Notes: generated by a model not told the origin, from the letters alone. A DNA stretch of 64,000 nucleotides from Dehalococcoidia bacterium (GCA_963663895.2 CAXXRD010000002.1:608001-672000), one strand, 5' to 3'. Counted from the first letter of the stretch, positions 1,196 to 57,251 are shown. Made by a program: numbers and translations.

Positions 1196-2071
1196 ATGAA
1201 ACGTCTCCTGCTGATCATCGCCGCCCTCTGTCTTTTCGCCCTCTTCGCCGCCGGCCCGGACCGCGCCCATGCCGACGACGAGGAGTGTCCAACCTGGAGC
1301 TACACCGTGCGGTTCCCGGATCAGAGTCAGCACTGATCGTACGGGTTCGCGACGGAGGAAGAGGCGCAGGAGGCGATGGAGAGGTGGCTTCGGGAGGAGG
1401 CGACCGGCGTCCCGATTTTCCAAGCCGTCTATTGCGGCGATCACCTGACCGAGAGCCCAGAGCCGGAACCGGAGCCGATCGACCATGAAGCGCTTATCGC
1501 GGAGACGCTGGAGCAGATCCCGTCATCGTGGAACGTGACACGGGAGACGATCGCGGTCATCGACTGCGCGGACGGCGCGTCCTCCACAGGCTGGAGCGCG
1601 ATCGACTGGAGCTACTGCCGGCGAGGCTACGCGGGCTGGGCCTACATCACCAGCCGCGAGATCGTCTTGAACGCAGCCTACTCCGAGTCCTGGCAGGGCA
1701 TCATCGTCCACGAGGCCGTGCACATCGCCCACGCGCAGTACTGCAACCTCCAGACCCGGTCGCAGGGGCCGCCGCGCCCGCTGGTCCTCGCGCTCTGGCG
1801 TCTGTACAAGGACTACCGGGGCCCCTTCGCGCAGTACGAGGCGGTCTGCGTCCGCCCGGTCTTCAGGTTCGGCAACAGTTGGGCGGCGACGCAGGCGCGC
1901 CATGCCGCCCTCCCGGCAGGTAACCGGCCCGTTACGGCCTATGCCCTGACGAACTTTTGGGAATACCTGGCGGAGACGATCGGGGTTTGGGTCATCGCCC
2001 CGGACTGGGTCCTCCAGGAAGACCCACGGGCGCATGCGGCAGTGGAGGCGCATGGGATAGGCAGCGATTAG
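1196..2071 (+). pseudogene. Secreted zinc metallopeptidase-like protein (HExxH; lethal-factor/MtfA-like YAxTNxxEYxAE tail) interrupted by one in-frame TGA at 1334-1336
   Basis: ATG 1196 gives signal peptide MKRLLLIIAALCLFALFAAGPDRAHA; frame continues through TGA codon 47 into the 1376..2071 ORF containing IVHEAVH and YALTNFWEYLAE. Confidence 0.7.
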
Positions 2072-2503
2072 TCAGGGCTGATAGACGTGCTTACCCGATG
2101 CGACCCAGTTCGACCCCATAAACAGCTACGCCGTAGCCTTACGATCCAGCGCGCGGCCCCGGGTTCGATGGGGAAGCCACCCGGGTCGCGGGCCCGGCTC
2201 GCCGGGGAACAGGCGCCTAGCTCGGTCATCCCCCTCCGTGCCAAGCCAGGCATCGCCAAGAGCGACGGCAGTCATTATGTCGTTCTTTATACCAAGCGTG
2301 TTTCCTCGTCGAATAGCCGCCATCTTCGCCCTATCGCGCCGCATTCGCAGATTTTTCCACCATTTCCCCATGCTTTGCGGCACTTCTCCACAACCCCGCC
2401 AACCCGGTAGCCGCTATCCACACCTCGGCTCACCGATCCATAACGTTACGTCGCGTACCGGCATGCCCGCGGCCCCAGGAACGGGCCCCCGGCGATCGTC
2501 CCC

Positions 2504-3394
2504 CTAGCCGTAGCGGTAGACGCCGCGGCCGCTCTTGCGGCCCAGCCAGCCGGCCTCCACGTAGCGCCGCAGCATGGTGGGCGCGGCCAGCGACGGCTCG
2601 TGCAGCTCCGCCTGCATCGCCTCGGCGATATCGAGCATCACGTCGAGGCCGATGAGGTCCGCCGTCGCCAGCGGCCCCATGGCGTGGTTGAAACCGACGT
2701 GGCAGGCGGTATCGATGTCCTCGGCGCTGGCAACGCCGCTCTCCAGCAGGCGGAAGGCATCCAGGATGAAAGGCACCAGCAGGCGGTTGGCGATGAAACC
2801 GGGGGTGTCCTTGGCCCGCACGGGTTGCTTGCCCAGGCTGCGCACCCAGCGCTCGCCCAGATCCACGACCTCTTCGTCGGCCGTGTAGGGCACGATCACC
2901 TCGACCAGCGGCAGCACGGGCGCGGGGTTGAAGAAGTGCAAGCCGATCACCCGCCCGGGGCGCTTCGTGACCCCGGCCAGGTTCTGGTTGGAGAGCGAGG
3001 AGGAGTTGCTGGCGAGCACGCGCGCCTGGGGGCAGGCCTCGTCCAGCTCGGCGAAGATGGCGCGCTTGATGTCGAGACGTTCGCTGGCGGCCTCAAGCAC
3101 GAGGTCGGCGTCGGCCAAGGCGTCCAGATCCAGTCCCCCGCCGAGGCGCGCCAGGGCGGCGTCGCGCTCGGCGGCGCCGAGCCGCCCCTTGTCCACGAGC
3201 CGGCCCAGCCCCTTCTCCACGATGGCGATGCCGCGGTCGATCAGGGCCTGGTCGATGTCGCGCAGGACGGTCGCGTAGCCGTGCTGCACGGCGACCTGGG
3301 CGATGCCGGCGCCCATGGTGCCGGCGCCGATGATGGCGACTTTCTTGATCTCGGGCAGGGGCGTGGGAGCGTCTGCGGTCGAAGCGTCGGGCAT
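2504..3394 (-). CDS. 3-hydroxybutyryl-CoA / 3-hydroxyacyl-CoA dehydrogenase
   Basis: GAGTMGAGIA Rossmann motif, SNSSSL, GLHFFNPAP, PGFIANR, GRKSGRG. Confidence 0.93.
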   Translation of the reverse strand: MPDASTADAPTPLPEIKKVAIIGAGTMGAGIAQVAVQHGYATVLRDIDQALIDRGIAIVEKGLGRLVDKGRLGAAERDAALARLGGGLDLDALADADLVLEAASERLDIKRAIFAELDEACPQARVLASNSSSLSNQNLAGVTKRPGRVIGLHFFNPAPVLPLVEVIVPYTADEEVVDLGERWVRSLGKQPVRAKDTPGFIANRLLVPFILDAFRLLESGVASAEDIDTACHVGFNHAMGPLATADLIGLDVMLDIAEAMQAELHEPSLAAPTMLRRYVEAGWLGRKSGRGVYRYG

Positions 3395-6431: not shown

Positions 6432-7886
6432 TCAAGCCGAAGTTTCCCCTGCGGTATCCCGCGTGAGGGGCGGGACGGCGCCCGCCCACGGCATCGCCTC
6501 TTCGATCGCGGCCGCCGCCCGCAGCGCCGTGTCGTCCTCGCCCAAGCGCGCGACGATCTGGATCGCGGTGGGGAGGCCCTGCGGGTCGAAGCCGGTGGGG
6601 ACCGAGATGCCGGGCTGGTGGGTCATATTGAAGGGCGCGGTGAAGGGCGTCGCACCCCAGAAGGGGATCGCGGGCTTGCCTTCGATCTCCCGCAGCCGCT
6701 GCCCGTGCGGGTAGGCCGGCACGGCCACGGTGGGGGTGAGCAGCAGGTCGTAGTCGGCGAAGAAGCGGCGCATGAGCGCGCGGAAGCGCTCCAGCTCGGC
6801 GTAGGCCCGCACCACTGCGGCGCCGTCGACCTTGCGGCCGTGCTCGACGGTGCGCCGCACGTACTTCGTCAGCATCTCGGGCTCGGCGTCGTAGAGCCCG
6901 CCGTGATTGGCGGCGGCTCCAGCCAGGGCGATGGGCGCGAAGATATCGAAGGGATAGGGGATCTCGGGCGTCGCCTCCTCGACCACGGCGCCCGCTTCCC
7001 GCAGCCGCGCCACCGCGCGCTCGGCGTTGGCGCGCACGGGGTACGCCACCGTGGCGAAGCCGAGGTCGAGACTCCAGGCAATGCGCAGATCGCCGAGGCC
7101 GGTGCGCTCGCAAGCGGCCAGGTAGTCCGGCTGCGGCCCTTGGAAGGAGGTAGGATCGCGCGGGTCCGGGCCGGCCATGACCTGCAGCATGATCGCCGCG
7201 TCGCGCACGGTGCGGGCCAGCGGGCCCTCGCTGGAGAGCTGGGGCATGCCGGGGTCGCGGGGGACCGCCTTGGGGATGCGTCCCTGCGTGGGCTTGATGC
7301 CGACGACGCCGCAGTAGGCGGCCGGAACGCGGATCGAGCCGCCGCCGTCGCTGCCGTGCGCCAGCGGACCCAACCCCGCCGCCACGGCGGCGGCCGCGCC
7401 GCCGCTGCTGCCGCCGGCGATCCGCTCCGGGCTCCAGGGAGTGCCGGCCGGACCGCCCAGATCGTTGTCGGTCACGGTGATGAGACCGAACTCGGGCGTG
7501 TTGGTCTTGCCCAGCAGCACGGCGCCCGCGGCTTCCAGTCGCTCCCAGGGGATGCCGCTCGCCTGGGCGACGTTGTCCGCGAAGGCGCGCGAGCCGTGCG
7601 TGGTGCGCACGCCCGCGACATCGTGCAGGTCCTTGACGGAAACGGGCACCCCCAGCAGCGGCGGGAGTGCGGCCGGATCGCCGCCCCGCCGCGCGTCCGC
7701 ATAGGCCGCGTCGGCGCGCGCCGCCTGCGCGCGGGCGATCTCCGGAGTCACGGTGAGGAAGGCGTTGAGCGTGGGGTTGAGGGCGTCGATGCGCCCCAGC
7801 GTCTCCCCGACCACGTCGCTGGGACGGGCCTCGCCGGAGCGGTAGAGCGCGACGATCTCTTGGGCGGAACGAAAGGCGTATGCCAT
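6432..7886 (-). CDS. Amidase signature family protein
   Basis: KD..., GKTNTPEFG, GGSSGG, GSDGGGSIRVPA. Confidence 0.92.
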   Translation of the reverse strand: MAYAFRSAQEIVALYRSGEARPSDVVGETLGRIDALNPTLNAFLTVTPEIARAQAARADAAYADARRGGDPAALPPLLGVPVSVKDLHDVAGVRTTHGSRAFADNVAQASGIPWERLEAAGAVLLGKTNTPEFGLITVTDNDLGGPAGTPWSPERIAGGSSGGAAAAVAAGLGPLAHGSDGGGSIRVPAAYCGVVGIKPTQGRIPKAVPRDPGMPQLSSEGPLARTVRDAAIMLQVMAGPDPRDPTSFQGPQPDYLAACERTGLGDLRIAWSLDLGFATVAYPVRANAERAVARLREAGAVVEEATPEIPYPFDIFAPIALAGAAANHGGLYDAEPEMLTKYVRRTVEHGRKVDGAAVVRAYAELERFRALMRRFFADYDLLLTPTVAVPAYPHGQRLREIEGKPAIPFWGATPFTAPFNMTHQPGISVPTGFDPQGLPTAIQIVARLGEDDTALRAAAAIEEAMPWAGAVPPLTRDTAGETSA

Positions 7887-47618: not shown

Positions 47619-50564
47619 ATGACTCTCGTCCAAGAGAGCGATGCCGCGAAGGTACTGCAAGAATTCGGCGGCGACCCGCAGAGTGCGGAAAGCCTAGCGG
47701 CGTTCTTGGGATTTGATCCGATCTCGAGCCCGCAGGATCTGCTGGCCGGGCAGCTCACCGGAGACCTAAAGCACTTCTTCGCACGTCAGGACGACAGGTT
47801 CGGCGTCCACCAGTTGTACAAAGTGGGAGCGTGCGCCGCAGCCCCCGCAACGGTCGGCTTCTACATCGCGGTTCTCGCTGATTGGGGGCACCGCTCTTCG
47901 GATCGGGACCGCCCGCGCCGTCGCATCGCGCGTGCCCTCGTCGAGTACACGCCGGACCGCCGATCGCTGGCCTTGCTCGTGCCGCCAGCTGCGGACGGCC
48001 GTCGCGAGGCGGAACTCGTGTTTCCGCGAACTCAGGCGGACGCCTCCAGCGGGGCCGTAACCAGCATCCGCGCTCATCTGGATCTCGACGCCCCCACGCG
48101 CTTCCACCGGGACCTGTTGCGCGGTCTGCGCATTCCCGCCGAAGCGATCCTTCTTGAGGTATCCCGGCGCTGGCAGTCGCAGTTCAGCATTGAGCGCGTC
48201 ACCACCAAGTTCTACCAGGAGTACGCCGCCGTCCGAGACCGCATGGCCTCGGCCTTCCTCTCACGCAACCAAGAACACCCCGTAGTCAAAGAGTTCGACC
48301 AAGACGACGCGCGCGCTTGGGCGACCCGGCAGATGGGGCGAGTGCTGTTTCTCTGGTTCCTGCAAGCCAAGCGCTGGCTCGGGAAGCCCGGCGGACAGGG
48401 CTCGGCAACCTACCTGCTGGATCTATGGGGCCAGCGCGCTAGCACGGCGGCGGATGAATACTACCGCGACATCCTCGTCCCGTTGTTCTTCGACGCCATG
48501 GCCACCGGTAGCAGCAGCCGCGGCGAGGATCCGATCCTGGGCTTTGTTCCCTACCTCAACGGCGGCCTGTTCCGGCGAAACGCGCTGGAGGACCGCGTGG
48601 ACGACGCCGGCCCGATCTCGCTGCCGGACGAGGTGTTCGACCCGGCAACCGACGACTCACTGCTCGGCCTGCTCTCTCGCTACCGCTTCACCACGCGCGA
48701 ATCCACGCCGGACGACCAGTCCGTGGACCCGGACCCGGAGCTGCTGGGTCGCGTCTTCGAGAATCTCTATCAGGGCGACGAGCGTCACAACACCGGCACC
48801 TACTACACCCCGCGAGAGATCGTCCACTTCATGTGCCGCGAGGCTTTGGACGGCTACCTGCGCGACAGCACCGGCGTGGACCAGGGAACGCTCGATTCCC
48901 TGCGCGGGGAAGCCTTCGGATCCAGGGACGAAAGTTCAGCCGTCAGCCAGCATCCGGTGGATGATCTCATCGACGCCCTCGAAACCGTCCGCATTTGCGA
49001 CCCCGCCGTCGGCTCCGGCGCCTTCCTCTTGGGGAGTATCCAAGAGATGGTCGCGCTGCGGCGGGGCATCCTCTTTTCTCAAAGCGGCTACGTCGAGCCT
49101 GCAGAGCTCTACCGGATCGTGAGCGAATGGAAGCGGCGCATCATCAAGAACAGCCTGTACGGGGTGGACATCAATCCCGAGGCCGTCGAGATCTGCCACC
49201 TGCGGCTCTGGCTCTCCATGGTGCTGGACATGGACGAGCCTCCCGATGCTCCGTCGGACTGGGCGCTCCCCAACCTGGACTTTCAGATCGTTGCGGGCGA
49301 CTCGTTGGTGGACCGGGTCGCCGGCATCACCTTCAAGGAGTCTTGGCCGCCGCCGACAGATCTGCAGTTGGAGATGGGATTGCAGATAAAGCTTCGGCGG
49401 CTGGAAACGAACATCGCCCGGCGGAAGCAGGAGTTCGGGAGCACGCACCGCAATCCCAAACGTCTCCGGGATCTGCGTGACCTGATCGCAAGGGACCAAC
49501 GCGAGATCATCCGCTTGCACCTAGAGGAGGCTCAGGCCAAGGCAGAGCGTGAAGCTCTGACCAAGGCCGTCCGGCCTGGCAAAGCCGCGCTGCGGAAGGC
49601 CGATAGCTTCATTGACCGCATCCGCTCCTTGTTGGAGGAGATGGACGCGCAGGACTTCGCCCTGGTTCAGAAACCCTTCCTCTGGCCGATCGCCTTTCCT
49701 GATGTCCTGCGGGCAGGCGACCCCAATGCCGGGTTCGATATCGTCCTAGCTAACCCGCCGTATGTGCGGATGGAGAAGATTGATAACGAAGATGAACTGG
49801 CCTACGGCGAAGCCTTCCCGCAGGTCAGTGCTTCAAGGGCGGACCTTCTCGTCTATTTCTACGCCCGCGCCCTGCAGATACTCCGGCCCGGCGGCTGGCT
49901 GGCGTTCATCACCAGCAATAAGTTCATGCGGGCCGGTTACGGCGCCGGAATCCGTGAGCATCTGCCCGCTGCGCTTCGCATCCGGCACGTGATCGATTTC
50001 GGCGACCTGCCGCTCTTCGAGGCGAACGGCAAACCGGTGGCCGCCTATCCCAGCGTGGTGGTCGGAAGCCGCTCGAACACGACGCAAGACCATGCTCTCA
50101 GCGTCGCGGACCTGACGCATCCCATCCGCTCGAACCTCTCCAAGGATGGCCGGAAAGTGAATCCGGAGAACGTCCGCAGCGTCCTGGAAGACCTGAATGG
50201 CTTGCTCTCGCGGGCGGCTACGCCAGATTTCCCCCAAGTGATGCTGAAGAACGAGGGCTGGATCTTGGAAGATCCCGCCCTGATCCGTCTCTTCAACCGG
50301 CTGATGAATCAAGGCACGCCACTGGGTGAGTTCGTGAAAGGACGTATTTACTACGGAGTCAAGACTGGCCTGAACGCTGCCTTCGTCATCGATCAAGCCA
50401 AACGCGACGAACTTGTCTCCGAGGACCCGCACAGCGCGGAGATCATCAAGCCGTGGCTGCGGGGCAAGGACATCAAGCGCTGGAGGGCAGAATCTCCAGG
50501 GTTATACGTGATATTCACAAATCGCGGAGTGGAGATCGACCGTTATCCAGCAATCCAAGGGTAG
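47619..50564 (+). pseudogene. Eco57I/type IIG-like N6-adenine DNA methyltransferase, N-terminal part, interrupted by IS1595
   Basis: PYLNGGLF, DPELLGRVFE, GTYYTPRE, DPAVGSGAF (motif I), ANPPY (motif IV); the ORF stop lies inside the IS left TIR. Confidence 0.92.
50552..50559. repeat. Target-site duplication AATCCAAG (left copy)
   Basis: Identical 8-mer at 53132-53139. Confidence 0.95.
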
Positions 50565-50567
50565 TTA

Positions 50568-50597
50568 TAGACAATAGTAGCACTCCTATGGTACTAT
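50568..50597 (+). promoter_or_regulatory. Putative transposase promoter (TAGACA in TIR ... TGgTACTAT)
   Basis: -35-like 50568-50573, extended -10 50592-50597, AAGGGGG RBS before ATG 50620. Confidence 0.5.
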
Positions 50598-50619
50598 AAG
50601 TACGTAAAGGGGGTGCGTA

Positions 50620-51552
50620 ATGGCCGGTGGACCGGGGCGATCGGAGCGGGAAGGGCTGACGCTGGCGGAGCTGTTCAAGCGGTTCCCCGACGATGCGAAG
50701 GCAGAGGCATGGTTCGTAGCAGGGCGCTGGTCAGATGGCCCGATCTGCCCGCACTGTGAGTCCGACACGATCAAGATCGGCCCGAAGCATCCGACGATGC
50801 CCTACCGCTGCCGTGCCTGCAAGAAGTACTTCAGCGTCAAGATGGGGACCGTGATGGAGGGGTCGAACCTCGGCTACCAGACGTGGGCCATTGCGATTTA
50901 CCGCATGACGACCAGTCTGCGCGGCGTCTCCAGCATGCAGCTTCACCGCGATCTGGGGATCTCCCAGAAGGCGGCTTGGCACTTGGCCCACCGCATCCGG
51001 CAGGCGTTCGGCACGCCAGCGGAACCGATGGCCGGCCCGGTCGAAGTGGATGAGACCTACATCGGCGGACTGGAAGGCAACAAGCACGAATCCAAGCGCC
51101 AGCACCGGGGCCATGATGGCAAAGTCGCGGTCATTGGCGCGAAGGACCGGGCGACCGGGAAGGTGCGAGCGGAAGTGCTCGGCAAGGCGGAAGCGCCCCG
51201 CATGCGGGAGTTCGTGCGGCGGCAGGCGGCTCCGAAAGCGTCGGTCTACTCGGACGGGCATGGAGCCTACACGTCGCTGGAAGGAGAGTTCCGCCACCGC
51301 GCGGTCCAGCATGCGGCGGGAACCTACGTCATCTTCGATACGCACACGAACGGGATCGAGGGGTTCTGGTCGCAACTCAAGCGCGGCTACCACGGAACCT
51401 ACACGCATTGGAGCGCGAAGCACACGCACCGCTACCTGGATGAGTTCACAGGCCGCTACAACGCCCGGAGCGCAGACACCGTGGACCAGATGGCGGGCAT
51501 CGCCAAGGGGATGCAGGGGAAGCGGCTCCGATACCGAGAACTCGTGGCTTAA
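50620..51552 (+). CDS. IS1595 family (ISXO2-like) DDE transposase
   Basis: Zn ribbon CPHC..CRAC, HTH SSMQLHRDLGISQKAAW, VEVDETYIGG, YSDG, TNGIEGFWSQLKR, YLDEF..RYN. Confidence 0.96.
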   Translation: MAGGPGRSEREGLTLAELFKRFPDDAKAEAWFVAGRWSDGPICPHCESDTIKIGPKHPTMPYRCRACKKYFSVKMGTVMEGSNLGYQTWAIAIYRMTTSLRGVSSMQLHRDLGISQKAAWHLAHRIRQAFGTPAEPMAGPVEVDETYIGGLEGNKHESKRQHRGHDGKVAVIGAKDRATGKVRAEVLGKAEAPRMREFVRRQAAPKASVYSDGHGAYTSLEGEFRHRAVQHAAGTYVIFDTHTNGIEGFWSQLKRGYHGTYTHWSAKHTHRYLDEFTGRYNARSADTVDQMAGIAKGMQGKRLRYRELVA

Positions 51553-52364
51553 TCTGTCGGCAGACCAGACGGTAGTTGCAGGATGCGATCGAGGTGGGGC
51601 AGCGCGTCGGGAAAGCGATCCTGGAAGTACGCGTGCGCCCGCGTTGGCAGCCAGACCTCGTGGAAGTACCGGCGAAAATCCGCCAAGTGCTCAATCGGGT
51701 AGAGTCGCGCCTGCACGGTGGGGCGTCGCCCGTCAATGAACTCGTGGTCATAGGTGGGGAACTGGTTGGGGTCGATGCCTCTTCGCCGGAGGAAATCGGA
51801 GAACATGCGGCCCGTCGAAATGTCCGGCATCATCCTGTCTGGCGGAATCACCCCCACGTCTTCCAAAGGCGCGAGCAGGTGTAGGTAAATCTCATTCAGC
51901 ATCGAGAAATGGGTGTGGGGAATCTTCGCCCGATTCTTCAAGAATCGCTGAATGTGGACGGGCATGTAAGCCCGGAAGTTGCCCGACATCCAGTCGTAGA
52001 CCCACCGGTTTACCTTGACTGCGAACTCGGGCGAGAGCCATTGGCCGAGGTGCGTAGCAACTTGGGGGTGAACCCAAGTACCCTGCAACTGTGGCTCCCC
52101 TCCTTTGATGATCTGCACGAGTTCCGATATGGGAATTCCCATATCGGCTGAAAGTTCATCAAGGTACGCCTTCGTTTGGCTGTTTCGGTGGTAGTCCGCA
52201 AATAACTTCCCTGCTTCCTGGCAGAGCCTCGTAGCGTTGATGTAACCGTCGCGCGGTCGCTGAGGAACGAGGCCGCCATTGGCCGGGTGTTCGATGATGA
52301 GGGGGAGCTGCTGAAACTCCATGGGTTTTGTGAGAGCGCGTTGTTTCTTGTTCATCTCTGGCAT
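51549..52364 (-). CDS. KilA-N domain protein with BstA-like C-terminal domain (putative anti-phage/Abi protein)
   Basis: KilA-N: DGYINATRLC, QGTWVHPQVA, QWLSPEFAVKV; C-terminus HFSMLNEI...PDISTG...YDHEF...LYP..L.DFRRYF...WLP recalls BstA; start could be 52322. Confidence 0.8.
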   Translation of the reverse strand: MPEMNKKQRALTKPMEFQQLPLIIEHPANGGLVPQRPRDGYINATRLCQEAGKLFADYHRNSQTKAYLDELSADMGIPISELVQIIKGGEPQLQGTWVHPQVATHLGQWLSPEFAVKVNRWVYDWMSGNFRAYMPVHIQRFLKNRAKIPHTHFSMLNEIYLHLLAPLEDVGVIPPDRMMPDISTGRMFSDFLRRRGIDPNQFPTYDHEFIDGRRPTVQARLYPIEHLADFRRYFHEVWLPTRAHAYFQDRFPDALPHLDRILQLPSGLPTD

Positions 52365-52522
52365 CCCTGCCCGTATGCCACGCTCTCTATACCGCAGATG
52401 CCCCGGCTGCTGTGGTCCGAACGGGGAAAAGTCACGATTTCTCGTAGACGGATTGTGTATTGAGGGGAAAATGTGCAGGTTTGGAGACGCGAGCAGAACG
52501 GGGGCAGGCTATCCGAACCCCG

Positions 52523-52618
52523 TTACTTCTTCGGCTTCCGTACGCCGCCGCCCTTCACGATCGCCTGCATCACCTGCTGGGGCGTCGCCTTGATGCGGAG
52601 GTCTTTGATCTTCGGCAT
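52523..52618 (-). CDS. 31-aa basic micropeptide MPKIKDLRIKATPQQVMQAIVKGGGVRKPKK
   Basis: ATG 52618, TAA 52523-52525, GAGAG upstream, G/C-ending codons, hairpin right after the stop; below ORF-track cutoff. Confidence 0.6.
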   Translation of the reverse strand: MPKIKDLRIKATPQQVMQAIVKGGGVRKPKK

Positions 52619-52650
52619 GGCAACTCTCAGGTTACTACCAGAGGCGCGCG

Positions 52651-53049
52651 TCAGAAACAGTCAGCACCACGGAAGCGGACCGACCCAGTGAAAGGATCGA
52701 GCCGCACAGAGCAGGTGATGACCTGGTCATCACCATCGAAGAGGAATGATTCTTCCGCGCAGCGAGATGCTGGACGATCGCAGCGCACCGCCACGACGAA
52801 CTCAAAGATATCGTCGTCTGTCTCGCGGTAGCGCCAGGTCTCTTGCTGATCAGAGCAATCGGTCTCAGGGGACGCCAGAGTAACGTCCTCCTGGACGTTT
52901 TCGAGGACAAGCCCGACAGCAGCACGGCAGCCATCAGCGGCGGTGAAGTCATCGAAGAGGACAGAGTCACCACCACCGCAGGCCAAGACTGTGACGCTAC
53001 CTAGACAGGCGATCACCCCGAGCAGCGCTACTTTAATTCGCTGAGACAT
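52651..53049 (-). CDS. Cys-rich lipoprotein of unknown function (IS cargo)
   Basis: AAGGGG RBS; signal with lipobox VLAC-GGG; six further Cys. Confidence 0.75.
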   Translation of the reverse strand: MSQRIKVALLGVIACLGSVTVLACGGGDSVLFDDFTAADGCRAAVGLVLENVQEDVTLASPETDCSDQQETWRYRETDDDIFEFVVAVRCDRPASRCAEESFLFDGDDQVITCSVRLDPFTGSVRFRGADCF

Positions 53050-53079
53050 AGGTATCCCCTTACCGCGCGAGCGGGCGGC

Positions 53080-53108
53080 ACACTACGGGATCACCTGTAG
53101 GCGGTCAA
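53080..53108 (-). promoter_or_regulatory. Putative cargo-operon promoter TTGACC-17bp-TAGTGT next to the right TIR
   Basis: Minus strand reads TTGACC gcctacaggtgatcccg TAGTGT, then AAGGGG RBS and ATG 53049. Confidence 0.55.
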
Positions 53109-53131
53109 TGCTACTATTGTCTATAACTACC

Positions 53132-53139
53132 AATCCAAG
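53132..53139. repeat. Target-site duplication AATCCAAG (right copy)
   Basis: Identical to 50552-50559. Confidence 0.95.
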
Positions 53140-53651
53140 AGCATCTCCGATGGTTCCGAAGCGGCCTCGAAGAGCGGGCAACTGCCAATCTTCATCCTTG
53201 GTACGAGCTTCAGCAGCCGCAGGAAGGAATCTACGAGGAATTCACTCTTCCCAAGATCATCTGGCCTGACATAGCTCGCGAGGCACGGTTCGCTTCCGAC
53301 ACTAGCGGAAGCTACCTCGGTAACACAGCTTACGCGATGCCCGCAGACAGGACTTGGTTGTTGTCAGTCATGAACACTGACTTGATCGAATTCATACTGT
53401 GTCAGATGACCAATTCACTACGTGGTGGCTTTATACGATTTATTTATCAATATATTATCCATACGCCTATTGTAGCTCCTGACACAGCCATCACGTACCA
53501 CCTTGAATCCATTGCCCAAGCAGGACAAGTTGGAGAGTCCGTGGATAACGACGAACTAAATAACGTCGTGTACGACCTTTATGGACTGTCCCACAGCGAT
53601 GTGACAGTCGTGAAGGATTGGTTCGAGCGGCGGAGCCTGGAGAAAGATTGA
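53140..53651 (+). pseudogene. C-terminal (TaqI-C-like target-recognition) fragment of the interrupted methyltransferase
   Basis: Removing the IS plus one TSD gives an in-frame join RYPAIQ/EHLRWF...WYELQQPQ...PKIIWPDIA...VYDLYGLS. Confidence 0.92.
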
Positions 53652-53666
53652 CGGTACGGACCGAAC

Positions 53667-56600
53667 ATGGCTACTGAAACTACCGACATCCTCCCTATAG
53701 CCAACGAGTCCACCATCGGCTCCATGCGGGAGCATCTTGCCGGCGCCCTGGCCCGCGTCGGCCCCCGAGAGATCCGCATCGCGACCGCCTACCTAACTCC
53801 CGACGGCTTCCTCGAACTGAAGAGTGGGATGCAAGAGGCCGCGAGCGTGCGACTGCTGTTGGGCGAGCGGCCCTTCCTCAACCGCCGCGGGCCCGGGGAC
53901 ATCCTCGCCCGGCCCGGCGAACAGGACGAGCTTCACGGTCCGGCGGAGTCGGTGAACTGGTACACCTTCTTGGAGGGAGGCTACCCCTGGCTGCTGCTCA
54001 CCCACGAAGAGCGGCGGGATCTGCTGCAGAGCGGCATGACGCCAGATGCCAGCGCCTTCAACCTCTTGGCCTGGGAGCGGGTCACCGCCCTGGCCAGCTT
54101 CCTGCGCAGGGACAACGTGGAGATCAGGCGTTTCCTGGGGGCCGATGCGGGCAAGGTCCTGCCGGAGGAAGTGCTCGACTACCGCTCTCCCAGGAACCGG
54201 CTCCACGCCAAGGCCTATCTTTTCTCGGGCGAGACGAAACGCTATGCCGCCGTCGGCTCCAGCAACCTGACCAAAAGCGGGCTGTCCGAGAACTCGGAGC
54301 TCAATCTCGCCTCCTACGACCGCGAACTCGTCGCCCAACTCGAAGGCTGGTTCGACGACAAGTGGGAGCAGGGGCAGGACTGCAAGGCGCAGTTCATCCA
54401 GCGTCTGGAAGAGTGCGTGCTGTTCGGCCGGCGCTACACGCCCTGGCAGGTCATGCTCAAGTCCCTGCACGCCGCCTACGGCCGCTTCCTGGAGCTGGGC
54501 CTGTCCGAGGAGGTCATGGGCAGGCTGGCCGGCTTTCAGCAGCTGGCCGTGCAGAGCTGCGTTGTCCTCCTCAAGCGCCACTGGGGAGCCATGCTGTGCG
54601 ACTCGGTCGGCCTGGGCAAGACCTATGAGGGGTTGGGGGTTCTGCGGGAGTTCGCCAACCAGCGCGGCGAGGACCCGCAGCAGGCGAGCCGCCTTACGCG
54701 CGCCCTGATCGTCTGTCCCGCACAGCTTCGGGACAATTGGAACACGGACAAGCTGGCGGATTGGGGAATCAGCGCCAGCACCGTCACCATGGAATCACTG
54801 CCCAGCCTGACGGACATCGAGAGCGAGCCCGCGCCGCTTCAACGGCAGCGGCTCCGAACCACGCTGAAACGCTACCAGCATCAATACGACATCATCCTGG
54901 TCGACGAATCCCACAACTTCCGCAATCCCCGTACCAAGCGCTACCGCGCGCTCATGGAGATCATCCGCGGCGGCAAGCCCGATAAGCGTGTGCTCCTAAT
55001 GACCGCCACGCCGATCAACAACTCGATCTGGGACCTCTACCACCAGCTCATGCTCATCACCAGAGGCGACGACACCTGGTACGCGGGGCGCGGGCCGGTA
55101 CCCAACCTGAAAACGGCCTTCCAGGCCATTGAGCAGGGCGAGTCCGGCGCCGGCCTGCTGGACGCGATGATGCTTTCCTTGGTGCGCCGAACCCGCCACG
55201 ACATCCGCGCAATGCAGGAGGCGGGGGAGGAGATGGAGGTCGACGGCCAACCGCTGCGCTTCCCGGAGCATGAGATACCGAAGGCGGTGGACTACAGCCT
55301 GCAGGGACTGTACGGCAACATCTACCTCGACATCATCGACGCCATCGAGCATCTCAAATTCGCGGTCTATCGCCTTGACGAGTACGGAGTAGCGACCGGA
55401 GAAGGGGAGACGAGCGCGCGGCTGAGACAGCGCAACGCCAACTTCGTCGGCATCATGCGCACCATCCTGCTAAAGCGCATGGAAAGCTCCCTGGCGGCGA
55501 TCACCTCCACGGTGCAGAGCTTGGTGGACTACCTCAACCTGTTCCTGTCCCGGCTGGAGCAGGGCTACGTGCTCACCCCCAAGCAGGCCTACAAGCTGCG
55601 CGCCGTCTTGGGAGGTTCGCTGCCGGACCACGACCAGGATCTGGATGATCTGGACTTCGGGTCTGTGGCGGCGCTGCGGCAACAGATCGAAGCGCCGGAA
55701 GATCCAGACCGCAAGGCCAACTTGCAAGCGGACGTGGAGTCAGACCGCGACCGGCTCCAAATGCTTCTCACCCGGCTCAAGTGGCTGGAAAAGATGCTGG
55801 CCGAGCAAGGCGACCCCAAGGCCCAGGCCGTACGCCAACTGCTCGAAACGCTCCCCAAAGAGGACGCCCGTGGAAACCCCACCAAGGTGGCCTTGTTCAC
55901 CACCTACAAGGACACCGCCCAGCACCTGTTCCGGCTGCTCGGAGGAGACACGGAAACCCTGGAAGAAGACTACCGCGTGCTCAGCAACCTGAAGGACGAA
56001 CGCTGGATGTCGCTGCTTACGGGCGACGACAACCAGAATCGCAGACGCGCCATTTTGGAGCGCTTCGCGCCCCTCGCAACGCACCGCGAGACCGAACCGC
56101 TGGATGATCCGGCCTTGCTGAAAAAGATCGAGCCGTTGCGGGCCCAGAGCATCGAACTGCTGATAGCGACAGACGTGCTCTCGGAAGGCCAGAATCTCCA
56201 GGACGCCCAGTTCCTCATCAACTACGACCTGCCCTGGAATCCAGTGCGCCTGATCCAGCGCGCCGGGCGTATCGACCGCCTGCTTTCCCCTCACGACAAG
56301 GTGTACATCTACAACCTGATGCCCGAAGACGGCTTGGAAGACTTACTTAGCCTCGTCCAGAACCTCTCGAAGAAGATCGAAGCGATAGATGATGCGGTGG
56401 CGCTGGACGCTTCGGTACTCGGCGAACAGATAGAGGCGCGGGAACTGGACAAAATCATGAAGCTGCGCGCCGGCGGCGCCCAAGCCGAACAGGTCTACCG
56501 CGAGGAAGAGCGGGACCAGGGGCTGGACGAAGGTACGGAGTTGCTCAACAAGTACTTCGATCTAATGAAGGAATTCGCCACCGAGGACATCCGCGACATC

Positions 56601-57251
56601 CCCAACGGCGTCTACAGCGTGAAAAGTGGGGAGGCAACCGGCGTGTACGTCATGCTGAAGATGCCCGAGGAAGCATCCGGCGAAGTGTTCTGGAGATTCT
56701 ATCCTTCGGGCAACGTGGCCCAGCCGGTCACGTCACCCAACGATGTGCTCTCAATCGTGGAGGCCAGTAGAAAAGAGAATCGGTACAAAATCCCTGAGGA
56801 CGAAAATCCCTTCAAGTACCTAAAGGACCCGCTACAAGCCGCAGTGGACCAGATCGGCAGCGCGTACTTGGACGCCATCGCTGCGGTGACGCCTGACAAC
56901 TTCACCAGAAAGATTAGGCAGTTCCTCAATCGCGACGACTTGTTGGAGTCGGACCGGGAATTGTTTGATTTCTTCAGCGGGTGGGTGGAGCTGCCCCTGC
57001 CCTCGGATGCGATCAAGCGCGTGGGGATGCAGGACCCGGTAAGGATCGTGAACCAGCTCGCGCCTAACCGCGCGCCGCTCGACCAAGTGATCCCGGCCCT
57101 GACTGCGCTCAGGGAAGCCATCCAAGCCGAGGGGCTCGACCGTCCGCTCACACGGCCGGACACGAAACAGCCATCGGCCGAGGACTTGGAGTTGGTGGCG
57201 TGGGAACTCATAGTCGGTCCGGAAGGGCTCTCACAACCTACTAACAAGTAG
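53667..57251 (+). CDS. PLD-nuclease / SNF2-like helicase fusion (RM-associated, DrmD-like)
   Basis: LHAKAY + GSSNLT + NSELN PLD motifs; DSVGLGKT, DESH, TATP, SEGQNLQ, QRAGRIDR helicase motifs. Confidence 0.9.
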   Translation: MATETTDILPIANESTIGSMREHLAGALARVGPREIRIATAYLTPDGFLELKSGMQEAASVRLLLGERPFLNRRGPGDILARPGEQDELHGPAESVNWYTFLEGGYPWLLLTHEERRDLLQSGMTPDASAFNLLAWERVTALASFLRRDNVEIRRFLGADAGKVLPEEVLDYRSPRNRLHAKAYLFSGETKRYAAVGSSNLTKSGLSENSELNLASYDRELVAQLEGWFDDKWEQGQDCKAQFIQRLEECVLFGRRYTPWQVMLKSLHAAYGRFLELGLSEEVMGRLAGFQQLAVQSCVVLLKRHWGAMLCDSVGLGKTYEGLGVLREFANQRGEDPQQASRLTRALIVCPAQLRDNWNTDKLADWGISASTVTMESLPSLTDIESEPAPLQRQRLRTTLKRYQHQYDIILVDESHNFRNPRTKRYRALMEIIRGGKPDKRVLLMTATPINNSIWDLYHQLMLITRGDDTWYAGRGPVPNLKTAFQAIEQGESGAGLLDAMMLSLVRRTRHDIRAMQEAGEEMEVDGQPLRFPEHEIPKAVDYSLQGLYGNIYLDIIDAIEHLKFAVYRLDEYGVATGEGETSARLRQRNANFVGIMRTILLKRMESSLAAITSTVQSLVDYLNLFLSRLEQGYVLTPKQAYKLRAVLGGSLPDHDQDLDDLDFGSVAALRQQIEAPEDPDRKANLQADVESDRDRLQMLLTRLKWLEKMLAEQGDPKAQAVRQLLETLPKEDARGNPTKVALFTTYKDTAQHLFRLLGGDTETLEEDYRVLSNLKDERWMSLLTGDDNQNRRRAILERFAPLATHRETEPLDDPALLKKIEPLRAQSIELLIATDVLSEGQNLQDAQFLINYDLPWNPVRLIQRAGRIDRLLSPHDKVYIYNLMPEDGLEDLLSLVQNLSKKIEAIDDAVALDASVLGEQIEARELDKIMKLRAGGAQAEQVYREEERDQGLDEGTELLNKYFDLMKEFATEDIRDIPNGVYSVKSGEATGVYVMLKMPEEASGEVFWRFYPSGNVAQPVTSPNDVLSIVEASRKENRYKIPEDENPFKYLKDPLQAAVDQIGSAYLDAIAAVTPDNFTRKIRQFLNRDDLLESDRELFDFFSGWVELPLPSDAIKRVGMQDPVRIVNQLAPNRAPLDQVIPALTALREAIQAEGLDRPLTRPDTKQPSAEDLELVAWELIVGPEGLSQPTNK

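Follow-up and report, generated by a model that had tools for sequence, protein, structure and literature searches.

The 64,000-nt stretch of Dehalococcoidia bacterium DNA analysed here (below, the window; all coordinates are counted from its first letter) contains a 2,572-bp transporter insertion sequence (tIS) of the IS1595 family at 50560-53131. The element has transposed within its own genome, and one of its passengers is a homologue of the phage-defence gene bstA. Inside the bstA coding sequence lies a perfect palindrome that covaries among homologues and is a cis element under selection at the level of the nucleic acid. We consider it likely that the element is an active IS1595 tIS which, with bstA, forms a mobile single-gene abortive-infection unit, the palindrome being a candidate site for BstA. 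The structure of the element itself is ordinary; the interest lies in a recurrent defence gene borne by insertion sequences (ISs) and, above all, in the covarying palindrome among its codons. The features are collected in Table 1.

Structure and transposition of the element

The transposase matched the Pfam families DDE_Tnp_IS1595 (PF12762; E = 3e-34, profile positions 2-153 of 153) and, in its zinc ribbon, Zn_ribbon_IS1595 (PF12760; E = 1.5e-6, 28.5 bits with a cut-off of 25.4), as well as the NCBIfam model NF033547 "IS1595 family transposase" (E = 2.1e-51, 174.9 bits with a cut-off of 75, positions 2-215 of 215). The score with NF050000, 26.2 bits, was slightly below the cut-off of 28. The element thus combines an IS1595/ISXO2-type DDE domain and an N-terminal zinc ribbon with terminal inverted repeats (TIRs) and an 8-bp target-site duplication (TSD), as expected of the IS1595 family. 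The two 23-nt TIRs are 100% complementary, and their motif has only these two sites in the window, one at each end of the element (at most 3 mismatches; 0 expected from 100 shuffles). The rest of the element is filled by three open reading frames (ORFs) on the minus strand (51549-52364, 52523-52618, and 52651-53049), the first of which, bstA, is convergent with the transposase gene, so that the two stop codons overlap. The G+C content of the element is 60.2%, compared with 68.3% in the window. The original prediction, made from the sequence, was correct in describing perfect 23-bp TIRs, an 8-bp TSD, an intact transposase, and cargo on the opposite strand of an IS1595-family element. The TSD reads AATCCAAG on both sides, the transposase is full-length with 310 aa, and the passenger ORFs lie between 51549 and 53049.

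The same prediction placed a promoter-like sequence, TTGACC-17-TAGTGT, next to the right TIR. The sequence is indeed there, with the -35 box at 53103-53108 and the -10 box at 53080-53085, the latter agreeing with TATAAT at 3 of 6 positions by manual count, but it was not listed by the promoter scan, which found 1 site in the region with 1.1 expected in shuffles; hence the motif is no better than chance. The only site that the scan did list, TAGACA-18-TACTAT, is weak evidence given the same expectation. The transposase gene would probably be transcribed from this promoter, part of which lies inside the left repeat.

The genome (2.37 Mb, 5 contigs) contains a second copy of the element (G000:C2:122920-125491), 100% identical across all 2,572 bases, flanked by a different 8-bp duplication, TAAAACAG, and situated between two long ORFs that look housekeeping-like by eye. 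Two identical copies at different sites, each with its own duplication, mean that the whole unit transposes with its cargo, which makes it a tIS, and that it has done so recently, in agreement with the predicted recent activity. In outline, the DDE transposase moves the entire 2,572-bp unit and leaves 8-bp target duplications behind.

Two identical copies are also a classic source of mis-assembly, and one short-read contig, from run X1, links the left flank of the first copy to the right flank of the second. A chimeric assembly or a mis-join was weighed against contigs from four public sequencing runs. A contig of run X1 extends from the left flank through the complete element (50000-53131), and a contig of run X4 bridges the right junction (52591-53185). 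Further contigs end 28-30 nt inside the repeats, exactly at the element ends. At 53131 and 50558, loose ends lead into the flanking sequences of the second copy, a pattern that a two-copy repeat should produce in short-read graphs. In addition, each copy has a matching 8-bp duplication on both sides, distinct from that of the other copy, and the gene interrupted in the window continues in frame past the element. With these observations a chimera, which the original prediction had named as a possible refutation, becomes extremely improbable. No contig of the four runs joined the flanks by skipping the element; as contigs drop rare variants, this is uninformative about polymorphism. A fifth run, labelled a sponge metagenome, contained only 0.09 of the words and was used neither for this comparison nor as an indication of habitat; no RNA run, which would bear on expression, was among the runs listed.

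The search by TIR that had been proposed with the prediction brought up no sibling sharing the ends of the element beyond this genome: the exact 23-nt repeat had no match in a collection of genome contigs, and none of 40 relatives contained an identical element. Other members of the family do occur nearby. Contigs of all four runs hold other sequences sharing with the element only a stretch of about 33 nt of the transposase gene (51034-51068), around the region coding for VEVDETYIGG, which indicates that other IS1595 relatives are present in the same samples. The genome itself contains a third, degenerate IS1595-type transposase copy (L003:1223-1900; G000:C2:443903-444264 and surroundings) with 51% amino acid identity, gaps, and a scrambled C-terminus.

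IS1595-family tISs are already a described class (TnCentral preprint), sharing with the window element a DDE transposase with an N-terminal zinc ribbon, short inverted repeats, an 8-bp duplication, and mobile passengers. The original prediction did not recognise the combination of cargo genes; as a tIS with passengers, the element falls into this class. It differs from the described members in that its passenger is a phage-defence gene of the BstA family, that this passenger recurs across divergent IS1595 elements of several lineages, and that in its own lineage the transposase gene is accompanied by a conserved, convergently oriented ORF of 31 aa.

The BstA homologue and the palindrome in its coding sequence

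The 271-aa product of the first minus-strand ORF has both domains of the BstA family, KilA-N and the family-specific C-terminal domain. KilA-N (PF04383) matched residues 29-127 (E = 6.7e-25), phrog_6287 "BstA abortive infection system, replication inhibitor" matched residues 15-250 (E = 3e-52, profile positions 6-277 of 304), and the PADLOC BstA model matched residues 134-251 (E = 9.2e-16, profile positions 149-270 of 292). Over about 90% of its length, the protein shared 54-55% identity with Proteus and Escherichia phage ORFs. The KilA-N/BstA-like protein that had been predicted is therefore a two-domain homologue of the BstA abortive-infection protein by Pfam, PADLOC, and PHROGs alike. Of the possible anti-phage cargo, this one gene is what was borne out: PADLOC gave no match for either of the two small ORFs, and neither matched a defence family.

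An AlphaFold (AF2) model built on 30 homologues had a mean predicted local distance difference test score (pLDDT) of 79.4. When its N-terminal domain was compared by Foldseek with the Protein Data Bank (PDB), the best matches were the DNA-binding APSES/KilA-N domains of yeast Mbp1, Magnaporthe PCG2, and S. pombe Bqt4 (E from 2.4e-3 to 0.3, probability 0.8-1.0). These matches are weak, none reaching E ≤ 0.001, and cover about the N-terminal third only; the C-terminal half of the model had no structural match in PDB. Thus, the structural comparison that had been suggested yielded an APSES-like N-terminal domain and nothing for the rest of the protein. APSES/KilA-N domains bind short, partly palindromic DNA elements. 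The protein is also predicted to form a homodimer with a two-fold symmetric interface, with a score of 0.46 compared with 0.00 for the best control, at least 76% of contacts shared between runs, and a partner pLDDT of at least 77; of proteins solved as pairs of one chain, 20 of 30 attained the mark, as did 1 of 23 solved as single chains, counts that apply only roughly here since an alignment of our own was used.

According to the main text of Owen et al. (2021; PMC8585504), BstA binds sites of phage DNA replication and aborts the infection, acting alone, while a short cognate DNA element in the bstA locus, aba, silences BstA for its carrier. In the Salmonella prophage BTP1, aba is a 63-bp element at the start of the gene with terminal direct repeats. 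Homologues were reported from alpha-, beta-, and gammaproteobacteria; 79% of 72 were prophage-associated, 15 of 72 were "putatively prophage independent", and a small subset was found on plasmids. By what means BstA recognises DNA, and in what way aba silences the protein, are given there as open questions. The window bstA differs from that of BTP1 in three respects. It resides in an IS and not in a prophage, no other ORF of the element having a PHROG defence or structural match, and the main text of PMC8585504 does not mention insertion sequences. Its closest homologues are in metagenome-assembled genomes (MAGs) of Dehalococcoidia, Chloroflexota, or Binatia, and not in the Proteobacteria named in that text. 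Finally, in place of an element at the gene start as in BTP1, it contains a perfect palindrome in its interior, about 215 bp from the start. By analogy with the family, the window bstA is fairly probably a single-gene abortive-infection defence, whose product would bind replicating phage DNA, block its replication, and abort the infection.

The palindrome is centred on GGAATTCC and encodes ADMGIPISE, approximately residues 73-81 of the protein, within the KilA-N domain. We tabulated the corresponding site in 44 rows, i.e., the window and 43 loci (L065 is probably the same place as L020). In 18 of these rows a perfect palindrome with arms of 11-14 nt (22-28 bp) is found at the homologous position, and in 17 of the 18 sequences with arms of at least 11 nt (the window and 17 loci) self-complementarity runs through the centre, leaving no loop. 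L018 keeps 11 arm pairs around a centre, AATC, that is not self-complementary, with one mismatch. The other rows of the closer clade are not intact at the site: 19 residues are deleted in L017, L023 is degenerate as well as truncated, and the sequence of L067 does not extend over the region. The palindrome is absent from L070 (59% identity). Among the 21 rows with at most 56% identity, which form a prophage-type clade, 17 cover the site and none has an arm longer than 6 nt.

The arms covary. In 17 aligned sequences and 14 pairs, 91.6% of the cells were paired, compared with 72.7% in shuffles, and none of 500 shuffles reached the observed value, although, as the sequences are related, the shuffle figures overstate the significance. 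Two other measures are independent of kinship: paired cells fell to 25-54% when the partner column was slid, and there are about 12 distinct arm variants, the non-cognate natural types including GATATGGG, GAAACGGG, and GATGTGGG. Ten of the 14 pairs have changed on both sides (45 cells), and in the inner 12 pairs no cell shows a one-sided change of the G-U type and only 2 of 204 fail to pair. All four Watson-Crick pairs (ATG/CCC, ATA/CCT, ATC/CCG, and ATT/CCA) are found where the third base of the Pro codon pairs with that of the codon preceding Gly. In the outer arms, replacements are matched even at the level of amino acids (M/I, T/V, V/T, and L/R), giving the coding variants DM..IS, ET..VS, DV..TS, and SL..RD. 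Strict Watson-Crick compensation that includes amino acid replacements cannot be produced by selection on the protein, and the palindrome is thus a cis element selected as nucleic acid.

What reads this element is less certain. A symmetric BstA dimer could bind the palindrome as double-stranded DNA, either for autoregulation or for an aba-like self-recognition; we regard this as a reasonable candidate, somewhat short of an even chance. Still more tentatively, it may be the cognate DNA ligand of the dimer, so that the site of the protein would lie among its own KilA-N codons.

The palindrome could instead act as a hairpin in mRNA or single-stranded DNA (ssDNA), that is, as a signal for processing, stability, or translation pausing, or as a replication structure. 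As ssDNA it folds into a 10-bp stem with a 4-nt loop at -10.2 kcal/mol (z = -5.24), and none of 200 shuffles folds as well. Covariation does not separate a hairpin from a duplex site, and the four central nucleotides of L018 would fit a hairpin loop as well as a spacer. G-U pairs, on the other hand, are common in selected RNA helices, and the inner 12 pairs contain none in 17 sequences; nor is there a loop in nearly all palindromes with long arms. The Rfam scan of the element gave no match at E ≤ 1, and a symmetric homodimer is predicted for the protein, whose N-terminal domain is of a DNA-binding type. We therefore regard a hairpin as unlikely and the duplex site for the BstA dimer as the better candidate.

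Two other roles were considered and rejected. The palindrome is not a genome-wide motif: with up to 3 mismatches it occurs in the genome only in the two bstA copies, and its half-site matches the window no more often than chance would have it. Neither does it mimic transposon ends, as only the first 7 nt (GGGAATT) of the L012 and L021 repeats match the half-site, probably by coincidence, and the repeat of the window element itself does not match. No published report of a palindrome in bstA was found; among the papers retrieved on this subject, BstA and KilA-N occur together only in the two versions of Owen et al., the main text of PMC8585504 contains neither "palindrom" nor "inverted repeat", and the supplements of Owen et al. 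may bear on the novelty.

Two homologues have further peculiarities at or near the site. In L017:5001-5711, from a Chloroflexota MAG, the 19-residue gap starts exactly at the palindrome centre (...LSADMG/TWVHPQV...), which suggests a palindrome-associated deletion and that the palindrome is costly to keep. The homologue in L014:5001-5792 (68% identity) has one in-frame TGA and may be a pseudogene, yet it retains a perfect 26-bp palindrome; this locus is probably the same place as L049:8465-9256 and L062.

bstA as a passenger of IS1595 elements and the small ORFs

Searches with the BstA protein yielded 21 loci in species-representative genomes, 2 in viral contigs, and 15 in metagenome contigs; within the class, matches were found in 7 of 301 genomes, including the one studied here. 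Collections of phages and plasmids gave 44 and 52 records of homologues, all below 60% identity, meaning that the palindrome clade was not found in those collections.

In L012, L019, and L021, bstA comes after the transposase gene of a complete IS1595 element whose 8-bp duplication is exact, and L048 has a similar but less regular element (Table 1). In addition, L020 has a transposase gene 2.3 kb from bstA, and L011 has a transposase remnant 12 bp from it. The transposase gene and bstA are co-directional in L012, L019, L021, and L048, whereas they are convergent in the window. The transposases of these elements are 40-58% identical to one another, compared with 60-73% for the bstA genes. The L048 transposase is 76% identical to that of an element in L049 which has no bstA, so the carriage of bstA is patchy in this part of the IS1595 tree. 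As bstA is a recurrent passenger of divergent IS1595 elements in several lineages, the meaningful unit is "IS1595 + bstA", and, by analogy with the characterised BstA, there is a good chance that this unit is a minimal mobile abortive-infection gene.

Such recurrence would also be expected if the KilA-N/BstA-like protein served the transposon, as a DNA-binding accessory, regulator, or addiction factor, with the palindrome as its operator. Adjacency to IS1595 transposases is seen only in the palindrome-bearing clade (7 rows, and 0 of the 21 rows with at most 56% identity), and none of the ten ORFs neighbouring bstA in five transposase-free loci belongs to a phage-related Pfam family; among their products are housekeeping enzymes, an rve integrase, a Uma2 nuclease, and a DUF6791-ThiF protein. 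However, the protein resembles the BstA family over its full length and in both domains, 11 of the 18 palindrome rows have no transposase in the fetched flanks, and close relatives of the transposases, such as that of L049, do without bstA, which is therefore dispensable for transposition. We consider a transposon-serving role quite improbable and retain abortive infection as the probable function of bstA.

In the genome itself, L004:1433-1616 (G000:C3, approximately 118.9-119.1 kb) is a short relic in which two gene starts, ~42 codons of a bstA-like gene and ~22 codons of an IS1595-like transposase gene, are arranged head to head; it may be the remnant of a rearranged or older IS1595-bstA element. 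The neighbours of solitary bstA genes in L016:6626-7888 and L013:6685-7410 include a protein with DUF6791 and ThiF (E1-like) domains and a putative restriction endonuclease of the Uma2 family, and may represent a defence-island context.

We found no published report of bstA on insertion sequences or of BstA homologues in Chloroflexota-type genomes. The main text of PMC8585504 contains neither "insertion sequence" nor "Chloroflex", and "transpos" occurs only in its reference list; Table S1 and Figure S2 of Owen et al. may bear on the first point, and their supplements may list further taxa. No listed paper on IS1595 combined it with a defence term, and in the listed papers on IS1595 passengers neither titles nor the beginnings of abstracts dealt with phage defence. 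Tn7-like and other larger transposons carry defence systems as cargo and are likewise transposon vehicles for anti-phage genes. Compared with them, IS1595-bstA is a minimal IS-type element of 2.2-2.9 kb with one defence gene, lacking targeting machinery and a large cargo region.

The original prediction had combined bstA with the two small ORFs, described as a lipoprotein and a micropeptide, into one co-operating anti-phage module. The three ORFs are indeed co-oriented and closely spaced on the minus strand, but they are not co-conserved. The 31-aa basic peptide, MPKIKDLRIKATPQQVMQAIVKGGGVRKPKK, is a real gene: of the 65 genomes of the family, 5 (the present one included) have homologues, with 44-87% amino acid identity, and substitutions among seven homologues are distributed over codon positions 1, 2, and 3 as 55/38/88, a coding pattern. 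In this respect the micropeptide of the prediction was confirmed, whereas its membership in a module with bstA was not. In L049, L054, and L056 an IS1595 transposase gene is immediately followed by the ORF in convergent orientation; the L049 element (1543-3304; 1.76 kb with 42-nt repeats) includes a transposase gene and this ORF but no bstA. In L045, from the same genus, the ORF lies about 55 bp inside a repeat that differs from the window repeat at 1 of 14 positions, and other ORFs lie between it and a transposase fragment (87% identical). The ORF is missing from the other IS1595-bstA elements among the related loci screened. The peptide thus accompanies transposases devoid of bstA, and by this distribution we read it as part of the IS backbone of the lineage and not as cargo. 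It had no match in Pfam or NCBIfam, even in the 51-aa natural form from L045. As a guess, doubtful at present, it may regulate transposition.

Close to such a micropeptide-bearing IS end, in a related genome, two imperfect inverted repeats (L046:4498-4594 and 7030-7127; 53-54 nt, 85-87% complementary) bracket ~2.5 kb and may delimit another mobile element.

The 132-aa ORF is an orphan. Pfam, NCBIfam, PADLOC, and PHROGs all gave no match. In a collection of 5.8 billion proteins, those of 72-231 aa (the lengths searched) contained no homologue at E ≤ 0.01, and 28 related bstA loci yielded no credible match, the sole hit being 30 aa long at E = 0.042 in L043. Its single-sequence AF2 model was unusable (pLDDT 36.7), and its best ESM-atlas score, 0.80, is reached by shuffled proteins a third of the time. 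Read by eye, the N-terminus has a possible lipobox Cys (VIAC, Cys15, or VLAC, Cys24), and there are 6 further Cys. With G+C fractions of 0.66/0.46/0.62 at the three codon positions, the ORF is weakly coding-like and somewhat more probably a real gene than a spurious one. It is probably an incidental passenger, and a role in defence or superinfection exclusion seems improbable.

In L012:5905-6460, L019:5943-6866, and L021:5794-6066, bstA is followed by ORFs that are unrelated to each other and to the 132-aa ORF and belong to no Pfam family, at least one in each locus having, in translations read by eye, a signal-peptide-like or transmembrane-like segment. This may be a coincidence or a recurring "bstA + exported protein" theme, and it speaks for a module to some extent. 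In all, nine passenger or neighbour ORFs of related elements (L012, L019, L021, L045, and L046) gave in Pfam only a sub-threshold match to XhlA. Taken with the distribution of the two small ORFs, the lack of PADLOC matches for them, and the sufficiency of BstA alone in the published system (PMC8585504), a three-gene module is very unlikely, and bstA would be the single defence gene of the element.

Several points weigh against our account of the element as a mobile BstA defence unit. The protein is 51-55% identical to phage-borne homologues, and it is these that form the comparison set, not experimentally tested BstA proteins; moreover, the host apparently lies outside the Proteobacteria, in which BstA was characterised. 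No aba of the BTP1 type is recognisable at the start of the window bstA, although conservation of the aba sequence would not be expected. The flanks of the loci are unequal in length, so that the test of adjacency to IS1595 is not uniform, and the link between IS1595 and the palindrome clade may reflect shared environment and ancestry. The second passenger, the 132-aa ORF, has a product predicted by eye only to be exported or a lipoprotein. All four sequencing runs come from one study and may include the sample of the assembly itself, hence they are not independent support. Finally, the palindrome may function as a hairpin in RNA or in a single DNA strand, as considered above.

Insertion site and significance of the element

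Table 1. Features of the IS1595-bstA element, its surroundings in the window, and related elements
Feature	Position	Strand	Evidence
Left target-site duplication, 8 bp, AATCCAAG	50552..50559	.	read directly from sequence
Left terminal inverted repeat, 23 nt	50560..50582	+	inverted-repeat pair, 100% complementary
Promoter-like TAGACA-18-TACTAT, TG-extended, partly in left repeat, 5' of transposase gene	50568..50597	+	promoter scan
IS1595-family DDE transposase, 310 aa, full length	50620..51552	+	PF12762, PF12760, NF033547
bstA homologue, 271 aa, N-terminal KilA-N/APSES-like domain and BstA C-terminal region	51549..52364	-	Pfam, PHROGs, PADLOC, AF2 model
Perfect 24-bp palindrome in bstA coding sequence, CCGATATGGGAA/TTCCCATATCGG	52124..52147	.	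inverted-repeat pair, homologues, covariation
Conserved 31-aa basic peptide gene	52523..52618	-	homologues, codon-position substitutions
Orphan 132-aa ORF, signal-peptide-like N-terminus	52651..53049	-	sequence read by eye
Promoter-like TTGACC-17-TAGTGT of the original prediction, abutting right repeat	53080..53108	-	present in sequence, unlisted by promoter scan
Right terminal inverted repeat, 23 nt	53109..53131	-	inverted-repeat pair, 100% complementary
Right target-site duplication, 8 bp, AATCCAAG	53132..53139	.	read directly from sequence
5' part (980 codons) of interrupted type IIG restriction-modification / DrmMI-like N6 methylase gene	47619..50559	+	Pfam and PADLOC matches
Displaced 3' part of same gene, ~170 codons, contains HPWYELQQP	53140..53651	+	open frame 53142-53651, TaqI_C
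Downstream partner gene, PLD (HKD) + SNF2 helicase, 1194 aa, outside element	53667..57251	+	Pfam, PADLOC
L012, complete IS1595-bstA element, 2,637 bp, duplication TTTGTGAG, Binatia MAG			perfect repeats, exact 8-bp duplication
L019, complete IS1595-bstA element, ~2.94 kb, duplication AAAAAGAT, Dehalococcoidia MAG			perfect repeats, exact 8-bp duplication
L021, complete IS1595-bstA element, 2,164 bp, duplication ATTCTTTA, Gammaproteobacteria MAG			perfect repeats, exact 8-bp duplication
L048, element of 1.9 kb, transposase gene and bstA only			imperfect repeats, duplication 7/8 match

In the window, the element interrupts a gene whose remaining ORF of 981 codons is now terminated by a stop within the left repeat. 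This ORF has the Pfam domains Eco57I (E = 1e-33), N6_Mtase, and MmeI_Mtase, and its best PADLOC models are REase_MTase_IIG (5.9e-87) and DrmMI (2.4e-39). Once the element and one copy of the duplication are discounted, the frame of the host gene continues to its end in the displaced 3' part, which carries a TaqI_C specificity domain (1e-9). The N6-adenine methylase and the TaqI_C domain thus belong to one frame, as in type IIG enzymes, and the insertion severed the enzyme from its target-recognition domain. Judging from the sequence, the entry of this copy has probably inactivated a resident type IIG defence gene. There is no empty-site reference, as no close orthologue of the interrupted methylase was present in 5 relatives; the best matches there are at the level of paralogues (33-49% identical), with uninterrupted frames of 958-1149 aa.

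The gene downstream matched PLDc_2, SNF2-rel_dom, and Helicase_C in Pfam, and C3a139 "HKD+Snf2" (1.3e-54) and DrmD (2e-34) in PADLOC. Together, the type IIG / DrmMI-like methylase-nuclease gene and the PLD + SNF2 helicase gene form a two-gene locus (47619-57251) with a G+C content of 63%, compared with 68% in the window. The locus, probably an acquired one with a defence function, has been disrupted by the IS. This would be a case of defence turnover, in which one defence element knocks out another by splitting a type IIG enzyme from its specificity domain.

ISs are usually viewed as carrying a transposase only. Here, what is probably a complete abortive-infection gene rides on IS1595 elements of 1.9-2.9 kb in several lineages, which would make them about the smallest autonomous vehicles of a defence gene. 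By simple transposition, defence genes may thus travel and multiply outside prophages and defence islands. Should bstA provide no defence here, its recurrent association with IS1595 would still need an explanation. The palindrome, together with the predicted symmetric dimer, offers a concrete candidate for a BstA binding site, with natural allelic variants. If the palindrome is the ligand of BstA, the family would have its first defined DNA target, and a coding sequence would have been shaped as an operator for its own product. The protein and its site would then co-evolve within the same 24-28 bp, giving each bstA allele a private specificity, and IS1595 + bstA elements would be self-contained, self-marking mobile defence genes.

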